Source: Octopus sinensis (lineage: Eukaryota). From it: a DNA stretch of 43,025 nt. The translations under genes and the position numbers were made by a program. The stretch covers positions 1 to 43,025 of the forward strand of contig NW_021834899.1 in NCBI RefSeq assembly GCF_006345805.1, read 5' to 3'. Below the pieces are notes generated by a model. It searched no databases and was not told where the DNA came from. It saw only the letters and a list, made by a program, of their open reading frames with translations. Below, piece by piece: positions 1 to 35,048 of this stretch (within the stretch, counting starts at the first letter, position 1; each line of letters starts with the position of its first letter).

Positions 1-309
1 AATACAATTTACTATCATATTTAAACTTATGTCTGAAAAAATCAGGTCGATTGGATCTACACACGTGGGGATCTCGGGGGTGTTTTGTCGGGAAATAAAG
101 ACTCATTTTTAGTCAGAAATATGTAAAGTTCAGATCCCGCTTGCAACCAAAAACGCTCAAAAAGCTTTTCAAATTTAACCTCCCCCTATGTAGTCAAAAA
201 AAGTCGAAATTTATTCTGGGATTTTGGCCATTTTTTCAAATTTTATATTATTTTTGGACGCTGAATTCAAAAATGTTATCAGATATGAGATTACACGGAA
301 GAGGAGGGA

Positions 310-531
310 AACCATGGCTTCATACGGTTAATCGTCTCCTGAACTTTCCACGTGGCTTCTTTGTAATCTTGATGTTTTGCTGCAATAATTAGATTGTCAG
401 CGTATGATAAAAGGATTGTATCTTCGTCGTTTGGATTTGGGAGATCTCTTGTAAATAAATTGAACAGGATTGGTTATAAGGAGAATCCTTGTGGGACCCC
501 GTTTGGGAGGCATCGTTGTTTTGATTTTCGG
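310..531 (-). mobile_element. Non-LTR retrotransposon RT fragment (second copy at ~18151-18385)
   Basis: Minus strand reads RCLPNGVPQGFSL*PILFNLF...LLSYADNLII, matching the GVPQG and YADD RT motifs. Confidence 0.8.
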
Positions 532-752
532 CTAACACCGTGCAAGCACTGTTAAATGCTTTAACAGTAATAAAATAATGGTATATTTTTTAAAGTATTT
601 AAATTTGTTAATAAGATCGGGTTATGTCGGATGTAGATGATGATACACAGACGAACAATCAACTGAATTTTCACATTAAACAAAAACAGGATTTCATAAA
701 TATTTCAAATTCTGAATATAAAATGTAATAATATTTTAATATTAATTTTGAC

Positions 753-1260
753 ATGCCGACGACCATTTGAGGTTTGAGTCACACTACAACTCCCTCAATG
801 AATCATCCTTCGACAGCAAAATAGAAATTGCTAAGAAAGAGTTGGCCGATCAGGAAGAACTGTATTCCACGTTGATATTGTCGATAGTATCCCTTCTTTT
901 CAACCGATGGACCAATTTAATAAATGAGAAAGGCACTGAGCACGAGGGAACAATGTCATGTTCTGACACAATCCAAGTATTTATTTATTGCTATTTCAAG
1001 ACTCTTCTCGGTCTTTTCAGAATATTTTCCTGCGTTTCTCTGAACAACTTCGACGTCCCTCCCTCGCCCTGGGTTGCCTAGTTGTTGGTGGATTTGGGTG
1101 TGTGCAGAATCGATCAGCCTAATCCAGAACTGCCGATTTTTAATCTTTACTTTCTACTTTGAGGACTTCGAAACCTGTATTTGCTGGTAATACTAATATT
1201 CAGAGACCGACATGACTGTTGAAAATCCTACCATAATGATTCCATGAGAATCTTTTCCGT
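753..1260 (+). pseudogene. Disrupted multi-exon host gene of unknown function (second copy ~18620-19130)
   Basis: Coding-like stretch with candidate GT-AG introns at 977-1000 (24 nt) and 1177-1203 (27 nt). Copies A and B carry different stops, and B has lost the GT of the first intron. Confidence 0.4.
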
Positions 1261-1640
1261 GTTGACGGATACTTTGGATTTTATTGATTATATCTTAACT
1301 GAATGATTAAATATTTTATCTTTCAGTTCATGGTTGTGGCAATTTCACTTTTATAAATTAATTCTATAAACTGACTTACATATAGGGTGATTCGAAAATA
1401 ATGAATTTACACGACTTTCTGGAATATAAGAAACTTTGTTATGTGCAGTATAGAAAGGCTCTCCTGAATCATGTCCGCAACAAACTGAAACAAGTGCGGG
1501 AGTACGACTGGACGTACAGAGTAATGGATAAAATTGATTGAGGAGAGCGTTACTGCCATCAACAGTTATTTCCAATTTTGTTTGACTAGAGGGAATGCCA
1601 GACATGAATTGCAAGACATTATTGTGGTAATTTATTGTTA

Positions 1641-1700
1641 CAGTCTAACCTTCGTTTGGAACATTAATTGTTCCAAAACAAAGGTTGTTCCAAAAATCGT
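1641..1700. mobile_element. pogo/Tc1-mariner-like terminal inverted repeat (copy at 19506)
   Basis: TA|CAGTCTAACC start with internal ttggaaca/tgttccaa repeats, typical of pogo-type ends. Confidence 0.5.
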
Positions 1701-2149
1701 ATAAAAATTTACCGGTCTGCTTACCTTCTGTGTTTGTTTGGTTATTTTTACTCATTATTACAATAAACTTAATTGATTGATTGAACTTGCAAAAGCTTTA
1801 TCCAGTTTTCAATTTCATCAAAGATGATGTTTTTTATCATCTTCATTGTCGATTTTTTTTCTCTCACTTCTTATGAACTTTTCAATCTTCTGTTTCTAAG
1901 TATTTTCTTTTGGTTGATTGTGATAGAGAGCGGGTGGATATGATAGGTGTTTCTTCATCCACGTTTATTTCATTCAATTGCTTGGTAATAAAACTGGTTT
2001 CTTGCTCACATTCGCTCATCATTTCTTCATCTATTAATATATCTGGTAGAAATTTGGGCTCTTTTCCTCCTCCTCAGATAACTCATATGTATCATCCTCT
2101 CTCTTGACCTCAGAAAAGAGGCTTTTCACCTACATTGAGGTAATAAAGG

Positions 2150-2846
2150 AGTAATGCGCCAGCAAACAGCTCTCGTTAGCAATGGATAAATCCGCTTTCC
2201 TACAAATCAACTCGAAAAAGTCATCAGATCAGAGCTCTGGGCCCCTAACTGAAATTGTGCGCCCCAGCTGCATACGCTACCTGGGGCTTACAATCGACGC
2301 TAACTCGGGCTACCGTCTGCATGTCAAGAAAAAGAGAGCAAAAGCCATTGCGGCTTTCCGCCTCTTAAGAAGCATGCATCTGGATCCTAAGACATTCCTC
2401 TTCGTGTTCCATGCAACCATCCTACCCAGCTTGCTGTACGGAATGGAAGCATGGTACTACTCGAAAGATCTCGAGAAAATTTGCGGGAAATGCGAGAAAA
2501 TCCGACGCTACGCGTTGAAGCTAGCTTACAGGCTTGACCCGCGAGGCCCCGTCCCAAGCTGGGCGGAGACCAGATCCCCGGAGATACGACAGGTCATTGA
2601 GAAATCTATCCGATCTTTCCGGAAAAGAACTCAAGTGACCGACCTGTTTATCGATCGGAAACTCTCTGCACTCGTCAAAAATTAATGAATCTACTTTATT
2701 AATTCTGGCTTACGACAGATGAATTGGACGCAAGCTCAGAAGAGTTCAGTTGCCTTGGCATCAGTCTCGTCCTATCACCGTCCTCAATTCCTGTCACTTT
2801 CTCTTTCTCTGTTAATTACAATAAACTAAATTCATTCATTCATTCA
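2150..2846 (+). mobile_element. 3' end of a LINE (same family as 11255-13195)
   Basis: ORF 2182-2685 has the RT thumb motif IRYLGLTID and PSLLYGMEAW, followed by a 3' UTR with AATAAA and an (ATTC)n tail. MDKSA.L.INS is shared with the 11082 ORF. Confidence 0.85.
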
Positions 2847-2915
2847 CAATGTTGTTTAACTATATAAAACAAAAATAACTCGTCTGAATCGGTTCTGTCT
2901 GAAATAAAAAAAAAC

Positions 2916-3012
2916 ATGGCCAGAACTGAACAAACTGCTCGAAAATCTACTGGAGCGAAAGTTTCAAGGAAACAATCTTCTCGAATCTGCAAAATCTGCT
3001 CGCAAGTCTGTT
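2916..3012 (+). pseudogene. H3: Histone H3 N-terminal fragment
   Basis: MARTEQTARKSTGAKVSRKQ, then a frameshift to KSARKSV. A TATATAAA lies ~55 bp upstream. No histone fold follows. Confidence 0.85.
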
Positions 3013-3575
3013 TCACAATTTGCCATCATTGAGATATCCCCTCTGGTATTTACACTGTTTATAAGCTACTAGGTAGAATTGTGTTTTAATTAAAATTATC
3101 TTAATTTTTAGTTACCCAATTATTAATAGAAAACATAATAAATTGTGGCACGTGTGAGCACTCTTTTGACATACCTTGTTGTTCTGTTACATTATTTGGT
3201 CAATCATTATTTTTTTATTTAATTGGATTAGAAGGAATATTTTGCGATGTAGTTTCTTTTAATTAATAAATTATCTGAAATTTCATCATTTTTAATATTT
3301 GCGAGTTTATTCTTTCAATCTGTTTATATCGTTTATTTGAAATCTTCTCATTTATCTTTATTCATTGAATTTTACCTTATTTTTTGATAGAAAGTTCTAT
3401 TCTTTATATTCTTATGGCAAACTTTTATTTATTTGTTCCCGGATTTGGCGATCTTGTATTGTAGCGCCCTAAAATCTAAAATGATCAATTTCTACCAAAT
3501 TTTAATCATTATTGTTATATTTTTTTTCTAGACTTTTTTTGTAAACTGAACACGAATTTAATTATTGTTATATTA

Positions 3576-4690
3576 TGTCACGGTCCACGAGTGTGCCTAT
3601 GCCGTAGGTGTGCCTCCATCGCAATTTTTTTCCGTTTTTTTGTAAATCGGTGCATCTATTATCGATTAGTCCTAAATCATTATTTATTTAGTTTTTTGTT
3701 ACTTATTGGAAATATTCCAATGTCGGTGATTACAGCAACAATAAAAATACTGAAAGTATCACAATTTAAATATTTATATATTTCCTGATTTTATAAAATA
3801 TGTTTTTAATAACTAATATATATAAAAAAATTGAGTAAAAAATTTTTTAATTAAAAAAAATCTATATGGATGGATTGACCCTAACTCTAACCCTAAGGGT
3901 GCATTAACTCTAAAACCTAATCATTTAAAATTACAAAAGAATGTTTTTATAATTTTTTTAATTGTGAAAAATGTTTTTTTACCAAAATCCCCTCATCATT
4001 CTCAACTTCATAGTTGTCGCCATTCTGTTTCACAACTTTATATATAGTCGTATCCACCTGGTCGTAAAGCGGCATCGTTCGATGTGCCGGATTTGTGTTA
4101 AAATCTCCTCTTATGAGGACAGAATCACCACTTCCTATACACGTTTCATCATCCTTCCATCTCCTTCTTTTTTGCATTTTTTCCCCTGCCCTGATTGTGT
4201 TCCTCAATGCACCATGACATGCCTATCAACATGCATTAAAATAAATTACCTGAACTACTTCCACCTTGGGTTCAAACGCAATGAGATTATTTAAATCATC
4301 GCAATTAATTTTTGGAGGATACTGGCAGCCAGTAAAAAGTAAGAATGGAGTTTTTTGTGTTGTCTCGTGGACGGTCGTATTGTATCTGAATACGATCCTT
4401 CCAAGAAATGGCATATAACTCCCAAATGTTCCTTCTGACACACTTGTTGAAGACAACCATCTTTTAATCGACTGATTAAATCTATTGAATGAATACTAAA
4501 ATTATACCTTTCAACTTGTCCCTGAACCCATGGTCCACGAGGACGCCCAAAAACATGTTTGGTCCCAAACTCCTCACAAAACTTAACCATTTTTGAGTTT
4601 TTAAACTCTTTTCCATTATCTGTATGCAGTATGAGGGGAGGACCATTCGTATAAAAGATTTTCCTGATAAGATTTACAATTAGAGAACGA
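3576..4690 (-). mobile_element. Ginger-like (Gypsy-integrase-type) DNA transposon, 3' half
   Basis: GPPLILHTDNGKEFKN...GRPRGPWVQGQVER|26-nt intron 4482-4507|FNQSIKRWL and YNTTVHETT.KTPF. TGT terminus at 3576, preceded by TATTA. Confidence 0.8.
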
Positions 4691-4712
4691 AAATAATTAT
4701 CGCAATCTAAAG

Positions 4713-5570
4713 CTACTGATGATCGAGAAGACGTTGCCCCTCAGGTTGGGAGCAAGGGGAGGACTGGAAAATGTTGTTCAGAATTGCTTCGTCAAATTTA
4801 AGAAAGCGCATGTACACATTTAAGGAATCTGGTTTGGATAAGAAACCTTGAACGAGAGTTGCAAGCTGACTTCGCGAACCGGCCTGAAAAGTCTCAGAAC
4901 TGAAAGGAAGAAGCGCATCATGTGAACGAGCGATCGAGTTATCAAATAAAACGTTCTCCGTAAGCCGTTGTAGGTCTCGGTAGCGCTCAATGGTTCTATC
5001 ATTCCTTTGAATTGAATGTAGATCTGACGCTAAGTACATCTTGAGGTAAATGCTTCCGAAGTTTGGTAGAAGATTCGCCGTAGATGGGTCCCAGAAATAG
5101 TTTCTGTGAGCCGACTGCGAACGGTCAATTAGGGGGAGGAAAAGACGGAGGCGGAGATCCTGCTTCTGAATTGAAAAATCGCCGATGGCGTTCTTCCATT
5201 CCAATAAGTAATCAGGAAAAGGAAGATCTCGGATATTGAGACCTCGATAACTATCAAGTACTTGCTGGATTTCCGGGTCGAATGCATGGCTTTGGTAGGC
5301 TTCCAGAATCAGGTACATCACACAGTGTGCTATGTAAAGCTGGCATCCCGCGAGGGTACAATCAGATAGACGCTGCTGTGGAACAATGCTCATCACTACG
5401 GAATAAATTCGAGAAATGAGTGGTCCGAAAAAGAATGTATCTGGAGTATAGTCTATCCATGTTATGGTCGACGTCGGTGAACAAAAAGATTTTGAATCGG
5501 CCAACAATATGAAAGGGGTGAGATTTACTTCGTAACTCTTTCGTTGTGCCTTGATCATATCGCCTTTCAT
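4713..5570 (-). CDS. 285-aa intronless ORF, probable endogenous viral element resembling a partiti-like dsRNA virus capsid
   Basis: Intronless and GC-richer than its flanks. The motif order YTPD...LYIAHCVMYLILEA...DLPFPDYLLEWKNAIG...LLPNFGSI recalls partitivirus coat proteins (YxPD...LYFAILF..Q.LRA...LPIPGPL..FF.AL...LPN.P). Recalled similarity only. Confidence 0.45.
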   Translation of the reverse strand: MKGDMIKAQRKSYEVNLTPFILLADSKSFCSPTSTITWIDYTPDTFFFGPLISRIYSVVMSIVPQQRLSDCTLAGCQLYIAHCVMYLILEAYQSHAFDPEIQQVLDSYRGLNIRDLPFPDYLLEWKNAIGDFSIQKQDLRLRLFLPLIDRSQSAHRNYFWDPSTANLLPNFGSIYLKMYLASDLHSIQRNDRTIERYRDLQRLTENVLFDNSIARSHDALLPFSSETFQAGSRSQLATLVQGFLSKPDSLNVYMRFLKFDEAILNNIFQSSPCSQPEGQRLLDHQ

Positions 5571-6751
5571 CTCGTTTCCCTCCTGATGGAGGTCACGTTC
5601 AAAAAGCCATTAACCATAGCCTGAGGATTAGGCGTGATTGACCTAGAGAACATGAATTTAGGGTGCTTTATCATTGCCGCTATTGCACTCGTACACATAA
5701 AGTATCCAGGCAGCGACATAGAGCTAAAAGCAGAGGCTTTAACAAGGCCTAATCCCTTCTAATAAATGCATAAGTGATCCGGATTTAGGACTTCAAAACA
5801 ATGCCCTATGAACCTACTCACTTCATTTACATGAGCAGATGCAAATAGAGATTCTACCATTACAGCTCTTTCCAGCTCCCTTGGGAACGCTGCACATAGT
5901 GATACTACACGTGACAATACTGCATTCCCTGCATTGTAGAAAGGGATAGTACAGAATCGTAGTGCAGACATCGGATCTTCAGGACATGTGTACAACATTT
6001 TGTCCAAGAGACAGCAAAGCTTATCTAATCCTCTGTCTGGTAGATACTTTTGGTACATTTTCAAGACCAAAGACCTCTCAGGCTGGTATGCTGGGTCCAA
6101 ATTGCGCATCACGGTGTGGTATCTGTCCATGAGAGGATCTACTGCATCCGGGTTTCTTTCGGCTGCATGAGCAAATCTTACAGGCGAGAGCGCTTTCATT
6201 AAGGCAACTCTCCACTCTTCAAGTGTTGCTCTTCCTCCTTCTGCACCAGACTCCCCAAAATTCATGGCCATCTTTGCTGTTCTGACTTTGAAACCTTTTT
6301 CAACTAAGGAATATTCTGTGATATCCTGATACTCTTCAGTGATTTCAATGTCTCCAAAATTCGCGGGAGCATCAAATGTATAGTTTATTAAGAAGATAGC
6401 TAGACTGGATGTCACTAAATCCTGGTTAAAGTCAGTCATTCGACTCAAAGTATTTATTATCGCTCGATCGTTCTTCGTATATTTGTATTTTAGCTCTATC
6501 ATAAATGGTCTATATTCGCGAGCGAAGGTGCCAACCTCCATCTTAACATTCATGTTAAGAAGGATCGGCCCTCCACTCATGTACACTTTCTGATAACTAG
6601 GGTTATCCCAGTCTTTGGGTTGTAAAAATTCCCCGAGAGGAATTGTGCGAGGTTTTATTTCATCTTCTTCTTCCAGACCGTGTACCTTTTCTATCTGTTG
6701 ATATTCACTTTCTCCAATTGAATCTTTTACAAAATCTGCGAAGTTTCTCAT
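5567..6751 (-). pseudogene. Endogenous rhabdovirus-like (Mononegavirales) nucleoprotein gene with one internal TAG (5759-5761), C-terminally truncated
   Basis: LMD...YQP...YLPDRGLDKLCCLLDKMLY...SALRFCTI aligns without gaps to vesiculovirus N as recalled (LMD...FEP...WGNDSNYTKIVAAVDMFF...ASFRYGTI). Past the stop the frame continues KGLGLVKASAFSSMSLP, matching the N motif FGLSSKSPYSSVKNP. Confidence 0.8.
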
Positions 6752-6756
6752 ATATG

Positions 6757-7118
6757 ATGACTAGGGCAACCGGAAAGTTGCTCATAATAATGTAAAAAAT
6801 TGACCTTAAAAGTCAACTAAATTGCTTTAAAAAATAAAAAAAGTTGACATAATATGCTTAAAAAGTTGCCCTAAGAAACAGAAATTTATTTATTAAAGCA
6901 CATTAAATAATATTTAACATTTTCAGGTAGGAAATTTCTATCTTTGGTTAAAATTTTGTGAAGAATAGAAAATGATCTTTCTACTTCACACGATGTTGCC
7001 GGACAATCCAATAATAATGCGTGGTGAAATGGAGTAATTGGTAGCTTAGATAACTCCATTATTTTGAAAATGTCGTTTCTTGAAATTCGTAAGCTTATCT
7101 CCGAAGTGACCACCACTC
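6757..7118 (-). mobile_element. hAT-like transposon 3' end (dimerisation-domain fragment plus terminus)
   Basis: CPATSCEVERSFSILHKILT.DRNF hATC motif. The terminal sequence atgactagggcaacc recurs inverted at 33135-33149. Confidence 0.7.
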
Positions 7119-7119
7119 A

Positions 7120-9145
7120 ATGATAATGAGAATGAACTGTTCTCCACATCCCATACTGAAACCAACTTATTTCTATGATTACGAAAACGCAGATTGGAAT
7201 GCTTTCGCAAAGTACGTCGATTCAAGGCTCCAGAACTTCCACCCTGAGAATTTTTCTTCCTTGGACAGAGCAGTGGAAAGCTTCAACAAAACTATCATAG
7301 ATGCAAGGAATTTGATTATCAGAAGAGCATGTATAAGAAGTGGGAGCTCAAAATATGATTCAAGAACAAAAAAACTAATCAGAGAAAGAATCAGCCTCAA
7401 GAAAAGAAAGTATCGACCCAAAGGAATCATCGATCGAATCAGGGCTCTAAACATGCTTATTACGAATAATACCAACCAAGTCCAAAGGAAGAAGCTCAGC
7501 CGAATCTCTAGAGCTATGAATAAACAAGCCTCTATTTCGACCATGTGGACGATGTTGAGACGCTTGAAGAATCCTGACGAGCGTAAAACAGAAACATACC
7601 AGCTCAATCTAAACAATTTTATGAAACACTGTGTCAAGATTAGTCATATTCCTTATAAAAAAATGAACTCACAGCCAAGATTAAAATCAAAGCCATCCAA
7701 AGGGCCCCCGACGACTTATTTTCTTCCTGAAGAGGTGTCTGAAACAATCTCGAATCAGAAGAAAACAAACTCATGTGGACCGGATGGAATTCCACTTAAT
7801 CTACTAAAACACTTGGGCCCTGTTTCAATAAATGCTTTAACCACGATCTATAACACGTCATTAATCACGAACGCTATACCGAACTTATAGAAACTATCAA
7901 AAATCCGGCCAATATTAAAACCTGGAAGACCGAAGAACGACCCCGGCTCCTATAGACCAGTATCCCTTATATGTGTGTTGTCAAGAATCTTGGAAAAACT
8001 GGTCCTAAAACATATTCGACCTTTCCTCCCACAATCTACATTCCAACATGGATTCAAGGAAGGATTGTCAACGACCTCCTTCCTTACCACACTAACAGAT
8101 TTCATAAATGAAGGACACAAAAATGCAGGAAAAATCGATTGTATGCACTATCGACATTGAAAAAGCGTTTGACTCCGTCCCGAGGAAGATCCTAATTCAA
8201 AAGATATTTGGTACAAATATTTCTACACCTATGAAGCTATGGATTGCGAATTTTTTGAGCGTACGTCGTGGGAAAGTGTGCGTCGGGAACGAGAGTTCAA
8301 GATCACGCTTATTGCCCAATGGTGTACCCCAGGGTTCCTTTTTATCCCCGACCCTCTTAAACTTGTTTCTGAATGATCTCCCGGCTCATATGGATAATAA
8401 TGACATACTACTCTCCTATGCCGATGACATAGTTGTCGCATCTAGGGATGTAAATGTCGAATACGCGAAGGAAAGACTACAAAGAATACTGGACTACTTA
8501 TATATAGATGGCTATATGAAAACAGACTACATGAATGTTCCGAAAAGTCAGCAGTCACTCTATTCAAGAAAAATAGGAAGATGGGGACGAAAACTATTGA
8601 TGTCACGTTGAACGGAATTCCAATACCACAAAAGAAAACACAGAAGATATTGGGAGTAACGCTTGATACTTTCCTCTGTTTTTCACCTCACGTAGAATCG
8701 ATCGTATCAACCTGTATAAAGAAGATCAATTTTGTAAAAGCCTTCCTATGGAACTGTGGGAGAACTTATCCGCCAGGGGTAGAGACCCTTTACAATCAGT
8801 ATATCGAGCCAACAATAGGCTATGCATGTGCTGCTTGGGGCAGTAACCTGGCGGCAACGAACCGGCTAAAAATCGAAAAAATTCAAGAAAGATCTATCAA
8901 CCTACTGAAGGACCACACCGATAGGGAAATTGTCCATAGAACACTGGAGTCTCTTGTAGAGGCAAATGGGGGGGATCGTGGAAATGGACCACAAACCATT
9001 CACCGTACATACAGAAAGTGTGTGGGGTCACGGTCGGAACATCGTGAAAAGATGGCTCGACTGTTGAGAAGTGTCGGAATCACCTGAACGTGTTAGTTAA
9101 TTGGTTAAGACGGTGATTCTGTTTGGCTTAAATAATAATAATGTA
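7120..9145 (+). mobile_element. 5'-truncated LINE with degenerate RT
   Basis: SCGPDGI, YRPVSLICVLSRILEK, DIEKAFDSV, GVPQGSFLSP, YADD and KILGVTLD. It has a stop and frameshifts and ends in an (AAT)n tail. Confidence 0.92.
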
Positions 9146-9149
9146 ACTA

Positions 9150-9470
9150 TCAAAATATATCAAATAATCATATAACTCTCTTAGGAGATACAGAAAACAT
9201 GATACAAAGAAAATCACTTGCAACTTTCGCGCTCAAAAGATTAAACAACATATGGTTGAGAGGCAAACAAATTTCTGCGTTTTTAAAAATCAAACTTTAC
9301 ATTATGTTCCTAAAACCAGTCCTACTGTACAACTCCTCCTCTTGGGCACTCACATTGCAGGAAATGGAAAATCTCAAAATGCTGAAAGTGCAGGAAATGG
9401 AAAATCCTTCCACAGAATGCAGCTGAAATACATCCTAGGAATCTTTTGGCCAAAACGGATTTCAAAAGAT
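9150..9470 (+). mobile_element. RTE-like LINE C-terminal fragment (copy ~28140-28435)
   Basis: LKIKLY...KPVLLYNSSSWALT...SFHRMQLKYILGIFWP. Confidence 0.75.
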
Positions 9471-10139
9471 TAAACAACAAAACGGATTTCAACATCAATA
9501 TTCTTAGTAATATTGAAAACAATTGAATAACTTTGGACTTGGAAAAAATGCAGTTTTTTAGAAAAATTTGTGAAATTGTAGATGTGGTCTGGCAAATAGA
9601 CGGTGACGGATGTGATTGTTAGATTCGCAATATGTGATTCAACATTCACAAAAGTATACATTCGGTATTTTATTCTCTGGGTTAAAATCCAGTTACAGGC
9701 GAATCCTCTTTTTGTACGCAAAGTTATTATATAATTTAGTTTGGACGGTATATAAAATAAAGATTAAATTAAAGAAAAAAATCAACAGATTGTATTCAAC
9801 AATACTGTCTTTATATACAAACTAAATCAAAAAATGCACTAATCACTGTTAATAATGTTTATCAGCATTTATAGATGCCTTCAAATCGACTCCCTTCGTA
9901 TAAGAGAAGATTAAAAGAACCAATAAACATAACAATAATGAATAGACAAAAATAAACAGAAAATAAAAAAATTGTAAATAAGTTAGTAATAATAAGAATA
10001 CTGTGTACAAATTTAATTTTTATAAATACAAAATTTCATAGTGCATCACAAGAAAAACTAATAATAAGCGTGAAAATACACCGGTATAATTGATTGTTTA
10101 TGTATCAATTATTTTTTAATTCTAATTAATTATAAAGTA

Positions 10140-10612
10140 CAGTAAAACCTCTGGTGCTCGCCACCTCTGTTACTCGCCACCTCTATTGCTCGCCACATAT
10201 TTTTCAAAAAATTAAAATTTCTAGTAAATTTTGATAAATATTCTATTGCTCGCCATTTTCTAAATCTCGCCATTAATTTTTAAAAATATTTTTTTTGTTA
10301 AACTATTTTTTATATAAAATATTTCAACCACGCTAAATTTAACATGCGTAAGTGCACAAGATTGTCTTTTACTGAAAAACGTCGGATTATTGCGTACATG
10401 GAGGAGAACAAAAGTCTCACGATGGACCGTATAGCTTACTTTTTTTCTTCTGTTTTGAAGAAAAAAAATATCTCGAAGGGCTTGTGAACGATTTAAGACT
10501 TGGAAAAGAGAAAATAATGTCTACTGATCCTATTTTCTCCAATAAGAAGAGATTATCTAACTTAACTTATTCTGTTATTGACACCGAACTATTAACTTGG
10601 ATGGAATATGTC
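10140..10612 (+). mobile_element. pogo/Tigger-like transposon 5' end, truncated
   Basis: TA|CAGTAAAACCTC TIR with repeated ctcgccac units. ATG at 10344 gives MRKCTRLSFTEKRRII... and then YSVIDTELLTWM, a CENP-B-type HTH. Confidence 0.8.
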
Positions 10613-14447: not shown

Positions 14448-15289
14448 TCCTGTGTTGTGGGAGTTGATGGTTGTATAGTGGGCCAATTAATTATAATTGA
14501 TTTCTCTAATTAGATTTATCTCATTAATTCACATCATTTGAGATATTCCAGGCAGTCTTGGCAATCTGTCGCCCACAGTAGTGTCCCCGCCCAGTGACAC
14601 ACACTCTGGTCACCCTTATTACTGACAGTACGACAATCAATACTAGCCAATTATAACGACCCTATTCATATCAATGCTCTGTGTCGATATCATTAACACA
14701 TGCATGCTTATTATTAAACACCCTCAGCACTCCCATTCATATGTTTTGCCAATAGAGAGAGACAGTAAAGAAAGAAATGATTTTGTGCATCATTAGAATA
14801 AATAGAACTGACTAACTTAATCCCTGAGAGAATATCCCCTCCCCCATCTCGACCAAGAGGAGTACTGGGGTGCAATCCCCACCAAATCCACGGACTCTCA
14901 CGGTGTCTCCGGCTTTTACAAACAACTCAAATATTTTTTTTCGTCTCAAATCGAAACATAAAAAGTTTGTCCGCACAGGAAACGACGAGTTTACTTAAAG
15001 TTTCATCACAATGGACAACATTCCGCACAAAATCTTATTCCTCGAGGTCCAAATCAAGGACACGGATACACACTGCATCATGGGCATCCCACACAGTTTG
15101 CCATATCCTGCAGTAACAAAGACCGATCATCCCATACACGACACATCTGATTCTTCGTCGGGACATTTACAATGACAGGCATGTCTCTTTCCTCACATTA
15201 GCAACTTGGGTGCCTACCTCAGTGGGACGGCCGAGCAAATATTCCGAAGTGACCGAGAACTCGTCTGGGTACAGGCACCCATCGGCTAA

Positions 15290-15710
15290 GTCTTCTAAGT
15301 GCTCTTCTGACTCTGCCAGCTTTGTTGGGCGAGTTACTGTGGAGTTCGGCGGTCCTCCTCGGTTGATTGTTTTTGACCTCAGGAATACAGCATCGTCACT
15401 AAAAATTATCACTGGGATGAACCAAGTGGTTTCTGTGGTGATTGCTGCGTTTTCGACTGTTTTTTATACTATTTTTGGGGGCATCTACGCGGTCGCCTAC
15501 ACTGATGTGATGCAGTTAATAATCATGATTTTTGATTTTTTCGTCCTCCCCCTGACGATAGCCTACCTGACTCCCCCGGCCGTGAAGTTCTTCGGAATCG
15601 GAGCCCTGGTGGCAGCCACAGTGTCCTCAGTGTCGTCACCCGTGTTGGCCGCGGCGTCCCTCCTGACACAGAAAATATACCTGGACGTATTCCGACATGA
15701 GGTATTGAGG
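15290..15710 (+). pseudogene. SLC5A7: High-affinity choline transporter (SLC5A7-like) fragment with an internal deletion
   Basis: LPALLGELLWSSAVLL|29-nt intron 15362-15390|ASSLKII...YTIFGGIYAVAYTDVMQL is joined directly to VLPLTIAYLTP..KFFGIGALVAATVSS. These two blocks are far apart in the intact protein. Confidence 0.75.
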
Positions 15711-15711
15711 T

Positions 15712-16485
15712 GGCTGACTCGAGATATCGGGAAAGGAGTGATTGTTATTTGGTTGCTTCCCGATGTACTCGTCAGCAGCCGTATGGATACCATTCATAAT
15801 GGACTCCCATGTGTTCTTCGAGGAGAGACCCCGTCCTATACAAGAGATATAGCTCTCCAATGATTTTTGATAGTTTTCCCGAGTGAGGGAGGAGTACAAC
15901 AGTTTTTCCGTGAGATATCTTTCCTTGTAGCAGATGGGAGTCTTTGCGCGTCGAGGGGCGCATGGTGTATGTTGATGTTGAAACATCCAACGACCATTTT
16001 ATGATCACTGTCAACCCGAGATCCTCCATATGATCGGGAGTCGAATAAGGCAGCCTTATCGGCCTGTCGACAAAGAATATAATCGATTTGGTTGTAAATT
16101 GATGTAGTTTCACCGATCCCATTTGTTCTACTTCCAGTCCATGTGGTCCGATGTCGTGCAGCGTGGCAGAAAGCCTTGTTACACAAAAATAGTGAAAAGG
16201 TCTCACAGAGATGAGCCAGAAGAGTGCCCGGAAGGTTCCTGTACCCACGGCCATATCGATAACCCTCATGAATACAAGTAGATAAGTGTTTGTGTGTCAC
16301 AAAGCCTTGGCCATAGAGGGCAGCAGAATAAGGCGATAGTCCCCATAGACTTGGTCATCCCCGAGTTTCACTTTGGTTTCTTGTAGACATCCAACGAGAT
16401 CCTGTATTTCTTCATGTCCTCACATAGTGCATGTTTTTTCCAAGTCGATTTAAGGCCTCTTACATTGAAAGACATAATAGATAGT
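15712..16485 (-). mobile_element. RTE-like LINE endonuclease fragment
   Basis: SFNVRGL, TTWTG...YNQIDYIL, SRSYGG...SDHKMVV. Confidence 0.85.
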
Positions 16486-16937
16486 TCGTATGATTGCTTG
16501 TGTTATATCAGACATTGTGCAATAGAGGGTCACATATATATCATAAACATTATCTTAAAAAATCGATGAACGCTGTTTTGCTTTAATTAAAATATTCATT
16601 AGAATCAAAAATTATGATTATGATAATTTATAATAAAAAATTATCAATCCTAAACTAGATTAAATTTTTGTCTAGTCAGTTCTATTAAAACCGATCATAA
16701 AATTTTTTCTGGGTTATTCAAAGGTACAGGTTATATTTAATTTCATTCCACGCAATTCTTATATCACGTTGACCTGATCGGCGGGGTTATCATACTTAAT
16801 ACAAACGACGTCATTTTTTATTTCAATCGGAATTATAACATGAATGATTACAATAACACATTTTTTGCCTGCAATCCTTATGAAGATTTTTTTTTAATTC
16901 TTTTGACCACCAAAATTTAAGGAGATTTCCAGATAAC

Positions 16938-17670
16938 ATGACATTTCAACCTATGTACCAGATTCCCGACAATGATTTGTTTTTAAACCATTACCAGATG
17001 AATTCATATGATTTCATACAGGATTATCGAATTTTCGATAACCCTTATTCAGATTACAATCAGCCTTTCATCCAATATGAAATTGCTCGTCAGCAAATTC
17101 CTGTGACTTTGTACCAGCCTGATGTCAACGATTTGAGTCTTGCCATTTCCAATAATTACAAGGAAGACAATGTGCCTCATCTATTTACTGAACAGGCAAC
17201 AGTAAATGACGACATGCTTCAAAGAAAGTCTTTGGTAGAATTAGGAAACTATTTCAAGGCTAAAAGAATGAACTTTGGTTACTCACAGTCCGAGATGGCC
17301 ATTATAATGAAGAGAGGCGGGTTCCCCGTGTGTCAAACGACTATATGCAGATTTGAGTTGGGTAAACTCCCAACTACTGCAATGGAAAATCTAAAAGATT
17401 CTTTTTTGATTGTTCTAGAATCTCTGAAGAAAAACCCAATTTCCAAGTCCCAATTGAATTCGCTCCCGAAAGCCAGAAAGAAACGAACATGTTTTGATAA
17501 CAAAACCATAGAATACCTCGAAAATATTTTTTCAGTCATCGTTCAGCCAAACAAAGAAGAATCGGGAAGATTGTAGCAAAAACTGACTTGCCAGAATCTG
17601 TAGTCCGGAAGTGTGGTTTGGAAACAGAAGACAGAAAAAACGTCAAACTTTTTCTTCACATGATCTATGA
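16938..17670 (+). CDS. Divergent intronless POU-domain homeobox gene with two frameshifts in the homeodomain (pseudogene or consensus error)
   Basis: POU-specific box FKAKRMNFGYSQ...CQTTICRFE...L...MENLK, then RKKRTCF...LENIF. After shifts at ~17560 and ~17609 it reads IGKIVAKTDLPESVV and VWFGNRRQKKR, with TGA at 17668-17670. Confidence 0.88.
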
Positions 17671-20391
17671 AATTTTCAATAAATACGAGCTTTTTTATCG
17701 TGTTATTTTCATGTCCTGACATTAAATAGTCAATTTTAAATACATATTCGAACAATTTCCTTTATATTTATTGAAACACGTGTTTATCAAAAAGGCTTTG
17801 ATTTGGAATGGACGAAAGTCCAAAAAAAGGTTGAACAGGCTAATACAATTTACTATCATATTTAAACTTATGTCTGAAAAAATCAGGTCGATTGGATGTA
17901 CACACGTGGGGATCTCGGGGGTGTTTTGTCGGGAAATAAAGACTCATTTTTAGTCAGAAATATGTAAAGTTCAGATCCCGCTTGCAACCAAAAACGCCCA
18001 AAAAGCTTTTCAAATTTAATGTCCCCCTATATAGTCAAAAAAAGTCGAAATTTATTCGGGGATTTTGGCCATTTTTTCAAATTTTATATTATTTTTGGAC
18101 GCTGAATTCAAAAATGTTATCAGATATGAGATTACACGGAAGAGGAGGGAAACCATGGCTTCATACGGTTAATCGTCTCCTGAACTTTCCGTGGCTTCTT
18201 TGTAATCTTGATGTTTTGCTGCAATAATTAGATTGTCAGCGTATGATAAAAGGATTGTATCTTCGTCGTTTGGATTTGGGAGATCTCTTGTAAATAATTG
18301 AACAGGATTGGTTATAAGGAGAATCCTTGTGGGACCCCGTTTGGGAGGTATCGTTGTTTTGATTTTCGGTTATTCATTATACCGACTAACACCGTGCGAC
18401 TAACACCGTGCAAGCACTGTTAAATGCTTTAACAGTAATAAAATAATGGTATATTTTTAAAGTATTTAAATTTGTTAATAAGATCGGGTTATGTCGGATG
18501 TAGATGATGATACACAGACGAACAATCAACTGAATTTTCACATTAAACAAAAACTGGATTTCATAAATATTTCAAATTCTGAATATAAAATGTAATAATA
18601 TTTTAATATTAATTTTGACATGCCGACGACCATTTGAGGTTTGAGTCACACTACAACTCCCTCAATGAATCATCCTTCGACAGCAAAATAGAAATTGCTA
18701 AGAAAGAGTTGGCCGATCAGGAAGAACTATATTCCACGTTGATATTGTCGATAGTATCCCTTCTTTTCAACCGATAGACCAATTTAATAAATGAGAAAGG
18801 CACTGAGCACGAGGGAACAATGTCGTGTTCTGACACAATCCAACTATTTATTTATTGCTATTTCAAGACTCTTCTCGGTCTTTTCAGAATATTTTCCTGC
18901 GTGTCTCTGAACAACTTCGACGTCCCTCCCTCGCCCTGGGTTGCCCAGTTGTTGGTGGATTTGGGTGTGTGCAGAATCGATCAGCCTAATCCAGAACTGC
19001 CGATTTTTAATCTTTACTTTCTACTTGAGGACTTCGAAACCTGTGTTTGCTGGTAATACTAATATTCAGAGACCGACATGACTGTTGAAAATCCTACCAT
19101 AATGATTCATGAGAACTTTTCCTGTGTGTTGACGGATACTTGGATTTTATTGATTATATCTTAACTGAATGATTAAATATTTTATCTTTCAGTTCATGGT
19201 TGTGGCAATTTCACTTTTATAAATTAATTCTAAAACTGACTTACATATAGGGTGATTCGAAAATAATGAATTTACACGACTTTCTGGAATATAAGAAACT
19301 TTGTTATGTGCAGTATAGAAAGGCTCTCCTGAATCATGTCTGCAACAAACTGAAACAAGTGCGGGAGTACGACTGGACGTACATAGTAATGGATAGAATT
19401 GATTGAGGAGAGCGTTACTGCCATCAACAGTTATTTCCAATTTTGTTTGACTAGAGGGAATGCCAGACATGAATTGCAAGACATTATTGTGGTAATTTAT
19501 TGTTACAGTCTAACCTTCGTTTGGAACATTAATTGTTCCAAAACAAAGGTTGTTCCAAAAATCGTATAAAAATTTACCGGTCTGCTTACCTTCTGTGTTT
19601 GTTTGGTTATTTTTACTCATTATTACAATAAACTTAATTGATTGATTGAACTTGCAAAAGCTTTATCCAGTTTTCAATTTCATCAAAGATGATGTTTTTT
19701 ATCATCTTCATTGTCGATTTTTCTTCTCTCACTTCTTATGAACTTTCAGTAACTGCATTATATTCGTCTTTAGCAAACAGTTATCTTTGTTTCTAAGTAT
19801 TTTCTTTGGTTGAATGTGATAGAGAGCGGGTGGATATAATAGGTGTTCTTCATCCACGTTTATTTCATTCAATTGCTTGGTAATAAAACTGGTTTCTTGC
19901 TCACATTCGCTCATCATTTCTTCATCTATAATATATCTGGTAGAAATTTGAGCTCTTTTTCCTCTCCTCAGATAACTCATATGTATATCCTCTCCCTTGA
20001 CCTCAGAAAAGAGGCTTTTCACCTACATTGAGGTAATAAAGGAGTAATGCGCCAGCAAACAGCTCTCGTTAGCAATGGATAAATCCGCTTTCCTACAAAT
20101 CAACTCGAAAAATCATCAGATCAGAGCTCTGGGCCCTAACCGAAATTATGCGCCCCAGTTGCATACGCTACCTGGGGCTTACAATCGACGCTAACTCGGG
20201 CTACCGTCTGCATGTCAAGAAAAAAGAGAGCGAAGCCATTGCGGCTCTCCGCCTCTTAAGAAGCATGCATCTGGATCCTAAGACATTCCTCTTCGTGTTC
20301 CATGCAACCATCCTACCCAGCTTGCTGTACGGAATGGAAGCATGGTACTACTCGAAAATCTCGAGAAAATTTGCGGGAAATGCGAGAAAAT

Positions 20392-21931: not shown

Positions 21932-22028
21932 ATGGCCAGAACTGAACAAACTGCTCGAAAATCTACTGGAGCGAAAGTTTCAAGGAAACAATCTTCTCGA
22001 ATCTGCAAAATCTGCTCGCAAGTCTGTT
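21932..22028 (+). pseudogene. H3: Histone H3 N-terminal fragment, copy B
   Basis: Same as 2916-3012. Confidence 0.85.
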
Positions 22029-22588: not shown

Positions 22589-23696
22589 TGTCACGGTCCA
22601 CGAGTGTGCCTATGCCGTAGGTGTGCCTCCATCGCAATTTTTTCCGTTTTTTTGTAAATCGGTGCATCTATTATCGATTAGTCCTAAATCATTATTTATT
22701 TAGTTTTTTGTTACTTATTGGAAATATTCCAATGTCGGTGATTACAGCAACAATAAAAATACTGAAAGTATCACAATTTAAATATTTATATATTTCCTGA
22801 TTTTATAAAATATGTTTTTAATAACTAATATATATAAAAAATTGAGTAAAAAATTTTTAATTAAAAAAAATCTATAAGGATGGATTGACCCTAACTCTAA
22901 CCCTAAGGGTGCATTAACTCTAAAACCTAATCATTAAAATTACAAAAGAATGTTTTTATAATTTTTTTAATTGTGAAAAATGTTTTTTTACCAAAATCCC
23001 CTCATCATTCTCAACTTCATAGTTGTCGCCATTCTGTTTCACAACTTTATATATAGTCGTATCCACCTGGTCGTAAAGCGGCATCGTTCGATGTGCCGGA
23101 TTTGTGTTAAAATCTCCTCTTATGAGGACAGAATCACCACTTCCTATACACGTTTCATCATCCTTCCATCTCCTTCTTTTTTGCATTTTTCCCCTGCCCT
23201 GATTGTGTTCCTCAATGCACCATGACATGCCTATCAACATGCATTAAAATAAATTACCTGAACTACTTCCACCTTGGGTTCAAACGCAATGAGATTATTT
23301 AAATCATCGCAATTAATTTTTGGAGGATACTGGCAGCCAGTAAAAAGTAAGAATGGAGTTTTTTGTGTTGTCTCGTGGACGGTCGTATTGTATCTGAATA
23401 CGATCCTTCCAAGAAATGGCATATAATCCCAAATGTTCCTTCTGACGCACTTGTTGAAGACAACCATCTTTTAATCGACTGATTAAATCTATTGAATGAA
23501 TACTAAAATTATACCTTTCAACTTGTCCCTGAACCCATGGTCCACGAGGACGCCCAAAAACAGTTTGGTCCCAAACTCCTCACAAAACTTAACCATTTTT
23601 GAGTTTTTAAACTCTTTTCCATTATCTGTATGCAGTATGAGGGGAGGACCATTCGTATAAAAGATTTTCCTGATAAGATTTACAATTAGAGAACGA
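22589..23696 (-). mobile_element. Ginger-like element 3' half, copy B
   Basis: Duplicate of 3576-4690, with the intron at 23489-23514. Confidence 0.8.
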
Positions 23697-23718
23697 AAAT
23701 AATTATCGCAATCTAAAG

Positions 23719-24576
23719 CTACTGATGATCGAGAAGACGTTGCCCCTCAGGTTGGGAGCAAGGGGAGGACTGGAAAATGTTGTTCAGAATTGCTTCGTCA
23801 AATTTAAGAAAGCGCATGTACACATTTAAGGAATCTGGTTTGGATAAGAAACCTTGAACGAGAGTTGCAAGCTGACTTCGCGAACCGGCCTGAAAAGTCT
23901 CAGAACTGAAAGGAAGAAGCGCATCATGTGAACGAGCGATCGAGTTATCAAATAAAACGTTCTCCGTAAGCCGTTGTAGGTCTCGGTAGCGCTCAATGGT
24001 TCTATCATTCCTTTGAATTGAATGTAGATCTGACGCTAAGTACATCTTGAGGTAAATGCTTCCGAAGTTTGGTAGAAGATTCGCCGTAGATGGGTCCCAG
24101 AAATAGTTTCTGTGAGCCGACTGCGAACGGTCAATTAGGGGGAGGAAAAGACGGAGGCGGAGATCCTGCTTCTGAATTGAAAAATCGCCGATGGCGTTCT
24201 TCCATTCCAAGAAGTAATCAGGAAAATGAAGATCTCGGATATTGAGACCTCGATAACTATCAAGTACTTGCTGGATTTCCGGGTCGAATGCATGGCTTTG
24301 GTAGGCTTCCAGAATCAGGTACATCACACAGTGTGCTATGTAAAGCTGGCATCCCGCGAGGGTACAATCAGATAGACGCTGCTGTGGAACAATGCTCATC
24401 ACTACGGAATAAATTCGAGAAATGAGTGGTCCGAAAAAGAATGTATCTGGAGTATAGTCTATCCATGTTATGGTCGACGTCGGTGAACAAAAAGATTTTG
24501 AATCGGCCAACAATATGAAAGGGGTGAGATTTACTTCGTAACTCTTTCGTTGTGCCTTGATCATATCGCCTTTCAT
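23719..24576 (-). CDS. Partiti-like capsid EVE ORF, copy B (285 aa, open)
   Basis: Differs from 4713-5570 at two residues (LPFPDYL vs LHFPDYF). Confidence 0.45.
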   Translation of the reverse strand: MKGDMIKAQRKSYEVNLTPFILLADSKSFCSPTSTITWIDYTPDTFFFGPLISRIYSVVMSIVPQQRLSDCTLAGCQLYIAHCVMYLILEAYQSHAFDPEIQQVLDSYRGLNIRDLHFPDYFLEWKNAIGDFSIQKQDLRLRLFLPLIDRSQSAHRNYFWDPSTANLLPNFGSIYLKMYLASDLHSIQRNDRTIERYRDLQRLTENVLFDNSIARSHDALLPFSSETFQAGSRSQLATLVQGFLSKPDSLNVYMRFLKFDEAILNNIFQSSPCSQPEGQRLLDHQ

Positions 24577-25750
24577 CTCGTTTCCCTCCTGATGGAGGTC
24601 ACGTTCAAAAAGCCATTAACCATAGCCTGAGGATTAGGCGTGATTGACCTAGAGAACATGAATTTAGGGTGCTTTATCATTGCCGCTATTGCACTCGTAC
24701 ACATAAAGTATCCAGGCAGCGACATAGAGCTAAAAGCAGAGGCTTTAACAAGGCCTAATCCCTTCTAATAAATGCATAAGTGATCCGGATTTAGGACTTC
24801 AAAACAATGCCCTATGAACCTACTCACTTCATTTACATGAGCAGATGCAAATAGAGATTCTACCATTACAGCTCTTTCCAGCTCCCTTGGGAACGCTGCA
24901 CATAGTGATACTACACGTGACAATACTGCATTCCCTGCATTGTAGAAAGGGATAGTACAGAATCGTAGTGCAGACATCGGATCTTCAGGACATGTGTACA
25001 ACATTTTGTCCAAGAGACAGCAAAGCTTATCTAATCCTCTGTCTGGTAGATACTTTTGGTACATTTTCAAGACCACAAGACCTCTCAGGCTGGTATGCTG
25101 GGTCCAAATTGCGCATCACGGTGTGGTATCTGTCCATGAGAGGATCTACTGCATCCGGGTTTCTTTCGGCTGCATGAGCAAATCTTACAGGCGAGAGCGC
25201 TTTCATTAAGGCAACTCTCCACTCTTCAAGTGTTGCTCTTCCTCCTTCTGCACCAGACTCCCAAATTCATGGCCATCTTTGCTGTTCTGACTTTGAAACC
25301 TTTTTCAACTAAGGAATATTCTGTGATATCCTGATACTCTTCAGTGATTTCAATGTCTCCAAAATTCGCGGGAGCATCAAATGTATAGTTTATTAAGAAG
25401 ATAGCTAGACTGGATGTCACTAAATCCTGGTTAAAGTCAGTCATTCGACTCAAAGTATTTATTATCGCTCGATCGTTCTTCGTATATTTGTATTTTAGCT
25501 CTATCATAAATGGTCTATATTCGCGAGCGAAGGTGCCAACCTCCATCTTAACATCATGATCGGCCCTCCACTCATGTACACTTTCTGATAACTAGGGTTA
25601 TCCCAGTCTTTGTCTTTGGGTTGTAAAAATTCCCCGAGAGGAATTTGCGAGGTTTATTTCATCTCCTTCTCTCAGACCGTGTACCTTTTCTATCTGTTGA
25701 TATTCACTTTCTCCAATTGAATCTTTTACAAAATCTGCGAAGTTTCTCAT
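24573..25750 (-). pseudogene. Rhabdovirus-like nucleoprotein EVE, copy B (frameshifted)
   Basis: Duplicate of 5567-6751 with the same TAG plus several extra indels. Confidence 0.8.
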
Positions 25751-25755
25751 ATATG

Positions 25756-26116
25756 ATGACTAGGGCAACCGGAAAGTTGCTCATAATAATGTAAAAAATT
25801 GACCTTAAAAGTCAACTAAATTGCTTTAAAAAATAAAAAAAGTTGACTTAATATGCATAAAAAGTTGCCCTAAGAAACAGAAATTTATTAAAACACAACA
25901 TTAAATAATATTTAACATTTTCAGGTAGGAAATTTCTATCTTTGGTTAAAATTTTGTGAAGAATAGAAAATGATCTTTCTACTTCACACGATGTTGCCGG
26001 ACAATCCAATAATAATGCGTGGTGAAATGGAGTAATTGGTAGCTTAGATAACTCCATTATTTTGAAAATGTCGTTTCTTGAAATTCGTAAGCTTATCTCC
26101 GAAGTGACCACCACTC
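25756..26116 (-). mobile_element. hAT-like 3' end, copy B
   Basis: Duplicate of 6757-7118. Confidence 0.7.
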
Positions 26117-26117
26117 A

Positions 26118-33593: not shown

Positions 33594-35048
33594 CTAAATA
33601 ATATATCCCAAGTCAAGTTTTTTCTTCGACTTGACCTCTTGGATTCCATCAAGAAAGTCAATATGATAGATTGTATCCTGCTCCTTCCTCAGCGCAATCA
33701 TCCCCTTAAGAAATGACCCACAACTCCAATACTGCCTCGATGCACACAGCACGACACTGTGACCCATTAAAGTCCTCTGTCGACCTTGCCAGCTCAAAGT
33801 AGTTGACATCCTTACTAATCTTTTATACCAACTCAAAAAACCCCACAGTCATTTTCCTTGAGTGAATTTGCAGAATTCGAAGACGAGCTTCCTCATTCGG
33901 GTTGGGAAATTCGATTTTCTTGTCAAATCGTCCTGAGCGAAGCAAGGCCGTGTCCAGAATATCAACTCTGTTGGTTGCTGCGATCACTTTAACGTCTGTG
34001 TTAGGCAGGAATCCGTCCATTTGAAACAACAACTCAATCATCGTTCTCTGCACTTCTCGATCCCCAGTTTTCTCGCTGTCAAACCTCTTAGTCCCTGAAA
34101 TCACTCCAAACACTAAAACCAATGGCATCCAGTTCGTCTATAAAGATTATGGCCGGAGCCTTCTCTTTGGCCAAATTGAAAGCATCCCTCACCATTTTTG
34201 CCCCATCGCCGATAAACATTTGCACAAGCTGAGGACCGGCCATTTTAGGAATGTTGACTTGGTCTGGGCTGCACATGCCCGAGCCATCAACGTCTTTCCC
34301 GTACCAGGGACACCGTAGAGAAGTACTCCTACCGAACTTACCAATATGAGTACCCACCCTTAGGAGGCTGAATTCCAAGAGACTCAAATTTATCTTTATG
34401 TTCCATTGGGAGGACTACAGCTTCAATCAGCTCTTCAATTTGTTTTTCGAGCCCCCCAATGTCACTGTACTCCTCCGTGGGTCTCTCGTCTACTTCCATT
34501 GCCTTTACTCTCGAATCATACCTTATTTTATAAATAATATAATACTCTCTTGGAAGCTTCTCCAAAATAAGATAACTGTCCTTATTGACCCCCTAACAGT
34601 AAAACACGTGGATACATACGACAAGGTCATCCGGTTTTAAATCCTCTGGCTCTACTAGTCCAATGACTGGAAGAAAGTATGTCTGTCGGGTTGAGGTCTT
34701 TACAATAGCACATTTTCCTTTTCGCTGTGAGTCCAGGTTTATTGTTGCTCCTTCTTCCTCAAATTGGTCATTATCCAACTCCAGGATCTAAGGAATGAGG
34801 TTAAAAAGAACCTCAGCGACGTTGGACACCAAATATGGGAGCATTCGGTTGACTTTCAGTTTTTCTTTGCTCTCCTTATTTTTGTTTTTCATGAACTGAA
34901 TGTCATATTTGAGGGTCTGCATCTCAGAGCGCATGCACTGTGGTTTGATTATGGTAGATTATACGAATATTTCATCTTCTATTAGTTTTGTCCATCCTTT
35001 TATCTCCTCGGTAGGGAGTTTAAGAACGTCCTCATCACCGGAAGGCAT
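33594..35048 (-). CDS. PSMC3: 26S proteasome AAA-ATPase subunit 6A (Rpt5), ~414 aa, 9 exons
   Basis: [24 protein letters not shown], Walker [24 protein letters not shown], Walker [24 protein letters not shown] introns at 34938-34964, 34788-34811, 34593-34619, 34522-34545, 34329-34357, 34095-34119, 33815-33841 and 33705-33732. One base is missing in the T-run at 34243-34246. Confidence 0.96.

Follow-up and report, generated by a model that had tools for sequence, protein, structure and literature searches.

A rhabdovirus-like and a probable partiti-like fragment joined to a retrotransposon 3' end in the Octopus sinensis assembly

Non-retroviral endogenous RNA virus elements (nrEVEs) of Aedes mosquitoes are among the closest described parallels of the locus studied here. 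This locus is a cassette, at positions 4682-6761 of a 43,025-nucleotide stretch from the Octopus sinensis assembly (contig NW_021834899.1, forward strand; the whole stretch is hereafter the window). It joins a piece of a nucleoprotein (N) gene to a second open reading frame (ORF2). Like the cassette, Aedes nrEVEs are RNA virus fragments in which nucleoprotein is prominent, they lie in repeat-rich DNA, and some are composite. They have likewise been ascribed to retroelement reverse transcriptase (RT) and template switching (PMC8048955, PMC5497376). However, their partners are long terminal repeat (LTR) elements (Ty3/gypsy and Pao-Bel) and each composite described derives from one virus. The cassette instead ends in the 3' end of a non-LTR retrotransposon of the restriction-like endonuclease (RLE) type, and its pieces appear to derive from viruses of different phyla. 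Furthermore, output of PIWI-interacting RNAs (piRNAs) has been demonstrated for Aedes nrEVEs (PMC8048955, PMC5497376), whereas for the cassette it would be a prediction.

Two other systems resemble the arrangement rather than the content. Tripartite chimeric retrogenes, made by long interspersed nuclear elements (LINEs) in Magnaporthe and mammals, also consist of RNA copies placed head to tail, with the LINE 3' end last, and have been accounted for by double jumps (PMC2104539). These have parts from cellular RNAs and flanking direct repeats; the cassette has viral parts, and its upstream flank has been replaced. The R2 enzyme, again of RLE type, makes one cDNA from separate templates with little or no homology (PMC8594491, PMC8857657). 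This serial jumping was seen in vitro and runs end to end, whereas the junctions of the cassette are internal and its element is CRE-like, not R2.

Endogenous bornavirus-like N (EBLN) sequences are a further parallel. They were made by LINE-1, end in the poly-A of the viral mRNA and contain one virus only. Here too, a mononegavirus N mRNA appears to have been copied by a non-LTR element. In contrast to EBLN, priming would have come from the 3' end of the element itself, and the cassette includes a second virus. The literature searched, mostly open-access, contained no fusion of a rhabdovirus to a partitivirus that lacks a spacer and terminates in an RLE element. Nor did it contain a viral insert in dicyemids, the parasites to which the contig probably belongs.

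In the sense orientation of the viral frames, the block at 4682-6761 and its flanks read: hAT end, N piece, ORF2 piece, 19-base filler, retrotransposon 3' end, Ginger integrase. The elements around the cassette have mixed orientation. The features are as follows.

4294..4681, minus strand: Ginger-type integrase (3' half), target of the insertion (Pfam rve; uninterrupted copy L070)
4682..4745, minus strand: last ~15 codons and short 3' untranslated region of a high-copy CRE-like RLE-type non-LTR retrotransposon (repeat matches, fetched copies, tblastn)
4746..4764, minus strand: filler of 19 bases between the end of ORF2-family similarity and the retrotransposon 3' end, source not found
4765..5600, minus strand: ORF2-family fragment, probable partiti-like second segment or capsid, in another frame than N (family matches, leader similarity, co-location)
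5600..6751, minus strand: rhabdovirus-like N fragment, codons 1-384, with an internal TAG (sibling comparison; sibling L008 matches two Rhabdo_ncap proteins)
6752..6761, minus strand: 10 bases 5' of the N start codon, leader remnant or hAT target
6762..7098, plus strand: one end of a hAT-type DNA transposon, a later insertion (full 2.7-kb copy L138)
23688..25760, minus strand: second copy of the entire cassette, lying in a duplicated segment of 10 kb; small indels disrupt its N frame further
33600..34934, minus strand: proteasome ATPase (Rpt5-like) gene with 19-29-base introns, marking the organism that owns the contig

We favour, with moderate confidence, a single insertion by a CRE-like non-LTR retrotransposon, made by target-primed reverse transcription with serial template jumps. 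The three pieces are all in sense, the retrotransposon 3' end is last, and it is flush with the target. Since target-primed synthesis starts at the element 3' end, the order of copying would be tail, then ORF2, then N. The event would have taken place in a parasite with a compact genome, probably a dicyemid, that carried a rhabdovirus-like and a partiti-like virus. The element's enzyme would have cut in the Ginger integrase and primed DNA synthesis on the 3' end of its own RNA, of which only the 64 bases now present would have been copied. A jump, via the 19 filler bases, could then have led to the plus-sense second segment of a partiti-like virus, with 836 bases copied to near its 5' end. A second jump, with a 1-base overlap, may have led into N mRNA, with 1.15 kb copied to the start codon. 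Later, a hAT element inserted 10 bases upstream, N acquired a stop and the region underwent duplication. The R2 enzyme makes serial jumps between separate templates (PMC8594491; PMC8857657) and tripartite LINE chimeras are known in genomes (PMC2104539).

The evidence at the 3' boundary is as follows. The 64 bases at 4682-4745 are co-oriented with the viral frames. Among the matches listed, 36 of 40 stop at 4745 and most copies are 92-99% identical to the tail. The tblastn match covers residues 501-515 of 515, and four fetched tail copies are the ends of ORFs with RT and restriction-like endonuclease. A related element in the window matches RVT_1. The tail element has C-terminal cysteine/histidine and RPDG motifs, which we take to be significant for classification, and it is from these motifs that we presume the element to be CRE-like. 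On the other side of the boundary, the integrase, presumably of the type named Ginger, has a Pfam rve match and the uninterrupted copy (L070) resumes exactly at 4681. Hence, an intact non-LTR 3' end lies flush with the target. We found no credible source for the filler among the loci examined. Similarly, the upstream Ginger half was not found; a target pattern search gave 6 matches, none by an N leader or Ginger.

The hAT end starts 10 bases 5' of the N start, and a LINE in turn interrupts it at about 7097. A full 2.7-kb copy (L138) has inverted ends and an 8-bp duplication. We considered the hAT as part of the capture and rejected this, since it is an ordinary multi-copy element. As a separate observation, similar 8-base targets seem to be preferred at several insertions of this family (window 6754-6761, L138, L142-L147).

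The cassette was first noticed in an initial annotation, made from the letters of the window, and much of its structural description stands. It reported a block with two co-oriented ORFs and no spacer. Two minus-strand frames are indeed present in the same orientation, at 5759-6760 (333 amino acids, stop to stop) and 4713-5609 (298 amino acids). Furthermore, similarity to N siblings (L006, L009) ends at 5600, exactly where similarity to the ORF2 family (L023, L028) begins. No poly-A tail was seen at the block, as stated. Template switching, also proposed, is backed by the co-oriented retrotransposon 3' end, which had been missed. For the same reason, only one of the two described neighbours is in place; the hAT end abuts the block, while the filler and the 64-base retrotransposon end separate it from Ginger. 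The block had also been called GC-richer. This is correct with respect to the flanks (25-38%, against 41.5% for N and 44.3% for ORF2). However, GC content is not diagnostic, because a host gene in the window is similar (43.4%).

The N/ORF2 junction has no spacer. It has a 1-base overlap (2 against one sibling) and a change of frame, without extended microhomology. Both sides are clipped and the ORF2 side lacks ~9 codons of the family start. An alternative, which we regard as rather unlikely though a serious contender, is that two captures, one of the N piece and one of the capsid-like piece with the retrotransposon tail, inserted close by and were later joined by deletion. Three other loci carry both virus types, 0.7-1.8 kb apart (gaps of 673-1813 bases) with retroelement pieces between, the genome is full of truncated elements, and the clipping on both sides fits a deletion. 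The shortness of the overlap, with no extended microhomology, does not, and no retroelement or host remnant lies between N and ORF2. In addition, the break ~9 codons from the ORF2 start is as expected for copying near a template 5' end. Finally, there is little divergence between the tail and its family (92-99% identity in most matches listed) and ORF2 is open, leaving little time for three events.

The N frame starts at 6751, is interrupted by TAG at 5759-5761 (codon 331) and ends at the TGA at 5567-5569. The differing frames and the stop in N rule out an in-frame N-ORF2 fusion protein, and the cassette is not a fusion gene. Stop-start coupling, suggested by an overlap of the N-frame TGA with an ATG at 5570, was also rejected as chance, since siblings carry the same internal methionine codon.

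If a CRE-like element captured viral RNA here, comparable contacts might occur elsewhere. Viral blocks of the fetched loci (most, not all, of the matches listed) were merged into 53 events. We counted 48, leaving out four with short flanks and one on a chromosome-scale contig. Within 400 bases of these blocks, CRE-like sequence was downstream and co-oriented in 11 cases, downstream and opposite in none, upstream and co-oriented in 5, and upstream and opposite in 3. Excluding the window, the downstream co-oriented arrangement occurs at 10 of 47 blocks and makes up 10 of 18 contacts (p 0.005 versus one in four). In controls from the same loci, the corresponding values were 3.4% for random positions and 2 of 32 for fragments of DNA transposons. 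Clean sense fusions to a 5'-truncated CRE-like element reaching its 3' end were found for the ORF2 family (L034), for the Mononegavirales large polymerase, L (L045/L048), and for N (L100).

Several other repeats were noted beside viral fragments. An AT-rich repeat unit, in short tandem copies, abuts viral 3' ends at differing positions (L006, L010, L061, L094, L108 and L060). It is a candidate for an element that truncates viral fragments, and sometimes has a CRE-like fragment behind it. At L045 (2577-2640), a ~17-19-base direct duplication at the L-polymerase/CRE-like junction is absent from the sister copy L048. At L091 (2898-2968), an N fragment is followed by a short end that looks CRE-like but has no significant matches in the tail library. 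At L060 (1-2700), a short unit is repeated in tandem over a long stretch, open in all three minus frames, that lies by a LINE fragment.

We next consider the N piece, described at the outset as rhabdovirus-like and 3'-truncated, which agrees with our results. By itself, the window piece had no matches in sequence searches, including Pfam. A DNA search of its own genome with the cassette, in which 40 of 135 candidates were scored, gave 4 cassette copies, 20 N-like siblings (71-82%), 15 hAT ends and 1 Ginger. The frame of sibling L008 is unbroken over 582 codons, and the window N matches its residues 1-386 at 84%, ending ~196 C-terminal codons before it. The GLxxxSxxSS motif follows directly after the in-frame TAG. 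Searched against 1.84 billion proteins, L008 had three matches, one a repeat artefact. The other two (phmmer E 5e-5 and 1.5e-4) are Rhabdo_ncap proteins above the Pfam cut-off. L008 itself scored 16 bits against PF00945 (E 0.0059), below the cut-off of 26, and hhalign gave the sibling N a probability of 94.6. Note that its PDB profile matches depend on including the two Rhabdo_ncap proteins in the alignment. The N model (predicted local distance difference test, pLDDT, 40) had no matches at E<=0.001, and rhabdovirus nucleoproteins recur within its top 50. Neither of 2 viral contigs was a relative of the sibling N, and a tree of N copies had no resolved branching.

The assembly also has 33 Mononegavirales L matches (PF00946). 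One L piece matches the two top L entries, one of which names VSV, at 3e-89 and 3e-82, versus 1e-7 or weaker for other mononegaviruses. We infer that the L pieces and this N came from the same rhabdovirus-type source. Judged by its siblings, the window N is best described as a divergent rhabdovirus-like N, a distant relative of PF00945 and not a member by cut-off. At sibling locus L032, N is followed by a different ORF, encoding a 266-amino-acid protein with no similarity to ORF2. This rules out N and ORF2 as adjacent genes of one virus, and agrees with the initial view that ORF2 comes from elsewhere than N's neighbour.

Could the chimera have existed as RNA, through viral recombination or processed read-through of an older insert cluster, and have been retroposed in one piece? 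We consider this very unlikely. Negative-strand and double-stranded RNA viruses replicate with different enzymes, and here the mRNA of a negative-strand virus would have been joined to a double-stranded RNA virus segment. The junction is also out of frame. No near-identical parent copy of either piece is in the assembly (the best N siblings reach 72-82% at the DNA level and ORF2 up to 68% at the protein level). The same-sense order does fit an RNA chimera. Composite inserts from non-adjacent parts of one virus have, moreover, been ascribed to recombination before integration (PMC8048955).

ORF2 has 18 other family members in its own genome (22 rows, 4 of them cassette copies), with 33-68% identity and, in most cases, stops. 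No N sequence was seen within the 1.5-kb flanks of 16 fetched siblings. Besides its first codons, the window fragment lacks the C-terminus. Searches gave no match in Pfam or the ESM Atlas, a best E of 0.71 among PDB sequences, and none among 393 near-length candidates, 7999 longer ones or 78 viral contigs. With the ORF2 model (pLDDT 35), Foldseek found nothing at E<=0.001 and the best VIA hit (Z 6.0) was to unrelated chains.

The link to a partiti-like virus comes instead from polymerase sequences. There are 3 RdRP_1 matches in the genome, and viral-contig relatives of the polymerase (8 loci) are 53-62% identical. The five of these 8 that were examined are 1.74-1.87 kb long with one frame of 537-549 codons; a monocistronic partiti-like polymerase segment of 1.4-2.4 kb thus exists. 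In Partitiviridae, a 5' end conserved between capsid and polymerase segments is a defining feature. The 50 bases 5' of the polymerase start at L059 match those of the ORF2-family start at L067 (0 of 2000 shuffles) and L068 (p 0.006), though not those at L034 and L039 (p 0.7). Upstream of the start codon the leaders align in register, and the first codons are similar too. A genome-wide search with the leader pattern gave 7 matches; 3 were known already, and 4 lacked a viral ORF or were on chromosome-scale contigs. We give the leader similarity moderate weight. Polymerase pieces also lie ~1 kb upstream, in the same sense, of the two ORF2-family starts whose leaders match; these are in sister loci, which probably represent one event. 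The initial annotation had named ORF2 a capsid. Sequence and fold searches do not bear this out, and it is the leader similarity and polymerase co-location that make it likely, in our view, that ORF2 derives from the capsid-encoding second segment of a partiti-like virus.

Between ORF2 copies (8 pairs), synonymous sites differ by 73-92% and non-synonymous sites by 9-26%. Since synonymous differences greatly exceed non-synonymous ones, the copies appear to have been captured separately from viruses evolving under selection. This bears on a further alternative, that ORF2 is a fragment of a host, transposon or orphan gene, and the cassette a virus-host chimera. The failure to match anything in Pfam, PDB, protein collections, the Atlas or fold searches is what such an origin would predict. 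However, the 18 other fragments are intronless and most have stops, though the genome's genes have frequent tiny introns, and the pattern between decayed copies is strongly purifying. The leader and the first codons are also similar to their counterparts in the insert of the partiti-like polymerase, the two sister loci have co-oriented polymerase pieces ~1 kb upstream, and no terminal repeats or transposase were seen around copies. Hence, we rate a non-viral ORF2 as very improbable, if anything slightly below the RNA chimera.

Other loci add detail. At L023 (C12471) and L028 (C12462), part of a partiti-like polymerase, a fragment from a different non-LTR family and an ORF2 leader with its start lie in one sense. 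At L016 (1507-2150), the last 29 codons of an ORF2-family fragment are repeated in inverted orientation, head to head. At L059 (4878-9564, C12814), LINEs enclose a P-like piece, a second N-like piece of much greater divergence, a fragment of a LINE, and a polymerase insert of partiti-like type with its leader. The final ~45 residues of the divergent N-like frame (7593-7730) match dozens of loci; they are repeat read-through, not viral.

The cassette had also been said to occur twice. A second copy is present at 23688-25760, but its flanks were copied too, so that the two represent one event. Window 1-10146 is duplicated at 17842-29112, with 98% identity between 2526-10146 and 21542-29112, and 95.5% between 1-2501 and 17842-20391. 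We can thus rule out two independent insertions within the window. The second copy of the duplicated segment alone has a ~1.1-kb insert with a FLYWCH zinc finger (20391-21542). Two further cassette copies, on contigs C9311 and C10060, both match the second locus across 20 kb. All four assembled copies, on three contigs, have the N/ORF2 junction in common and differ by few substitutions and indels. Because of this, we take them to derive from one event.

Confirmation of the join in reads had been suggested, and a contig assembled from run X1 (1740 bases, depth 97.5) spans 4826-6565 with one difference. Since it crosses the N/ORF2 join, the junction is present in reads. Runs X2 and X3, from the same sample, gave 0 and 2 contigs, which is no proof that the junction is absent. 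An assembly artefact might be suspected from the long-read-type indels in the window and the near-identical overlapping contigs. With the deep read-derived contig, and four assembled copies that share the junction while carrying distinct variants, an artefact is hardly credible.

Set against these data are several points that count against a single insertion by template jumping, or against its viral partners. First, the R2 enzyme is reported to jump only on arrival at a template 5' end (PMC8594491). Because the junctions here are internal, RNA fragments must be assumed as templates. Second, the upstream flank has been replaced by the hAT end and LINE, so a target-site duplication is not readable. 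Third, among the 10 other downstream co-oriented cases, only 3 are clean; one (L110) is ambiguous and 6 have 60-380 bases between, two of these having another repeat unit in common. Fourth, no second direct virus-virus junction was found at the examined loci. Fifth, the searches gave ORF2 no relative by sequence or fold beyond this genome. The leader similarity is seen at 2 of 4 ORF2-family starts, and p<0.01 was also reached by 3 of 24 control pairs. Finally, run X1 may be the source of the assembly and hence not independent support.

Our data suggest that the contig is not from the octopus. The window's Rpt5-like gene has, in its copies on C9311 and C10060, predicted introns of 24, 27, 29, 19 and 22 bases (one gene; the last exons are imperfect). 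A second Rpt5 orthologue, on the 208-Mb contig C2 (L074), has long introns, and the same exon is alone within 3 kb. Piwi-domain rows number 17 on chromosome-scale contigs and 6 on small contigs, while mollusc-type haemocyanin is on chromosome-scale contigs in 35 of 37 rows. The assembly thus seems to hold two animals, a mollusc and a compact-genome parasite, with Rpt5 and Piwi in both styles. Among animals, introns below 30 bases are reported for myxobolids and dicyemids only (PMC13644364). The renal sacs of cephalopods are the habitat of dicyemids, whose introns have a median length of 27 bases (PMC6543705) and whose genomes are repeat-rich (PMC6736024). The introns of 19-29 bases, and the presence of a mollusc in the same assembly, make a co-assembled dicyemid the probable owner of the contig. 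The large-genome host has a viral insert of its own, a Mononegavirales L fragment on chromosome-scale contig C23 (L062, 5756-7626; 4 of 33 L rows).

If the favoured origin is correct, the cassette would be a base-level record of non-retroviral RNA virus entry into a germline through an RLE-type non-LTR element. That route has been shown in vitro for R2, whereas entry in vivo is usually credited to LTR elements or LINE-1. Two unrelated viruses in a single insertion would imply that both had infected the same germ cell. The numerous fragments of N, P-like, L, polymerase and ORF2 sequence, each captured separately, would point to two persistent virus lineages in the probable dicyemid. Viral inserts from this assembly would, moreover, be wrongly ascribed to the mollusc host.

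The cassette is most likely a neutral by-product, though it could act as a small-RNA template, for instance in the hypothetical heritable antiviral archive raised in the initial annotation. A compact PIWI-clade gene on small contig C9497 (L111) matches Piwi (1e-24 to 1e-17) before Argonaute-2 (6e-13), and we infer that the owner of the cassette is also the source of C9497. A bolder and doubtful idea is that dicyemid CRE-like elements routinely self-prime and jump through viral RNA fragments, building heritable multi-virus cassettes that yield antiviral piRNAs. Viral RNA would perhaps be cut by the small-RNA machinery, and acquisition would be serial and spacer-like; the literature searched described no viruses for the phylum. 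Other compact genes with Piwi/Argonaute domains are on small contigs (L112 on C8702, C12468 and C7758). Elsewhere in the window are a very divergent POU-homeobox gene (16884-17576) and a sodium:solute symporter fragment (15117-15863).

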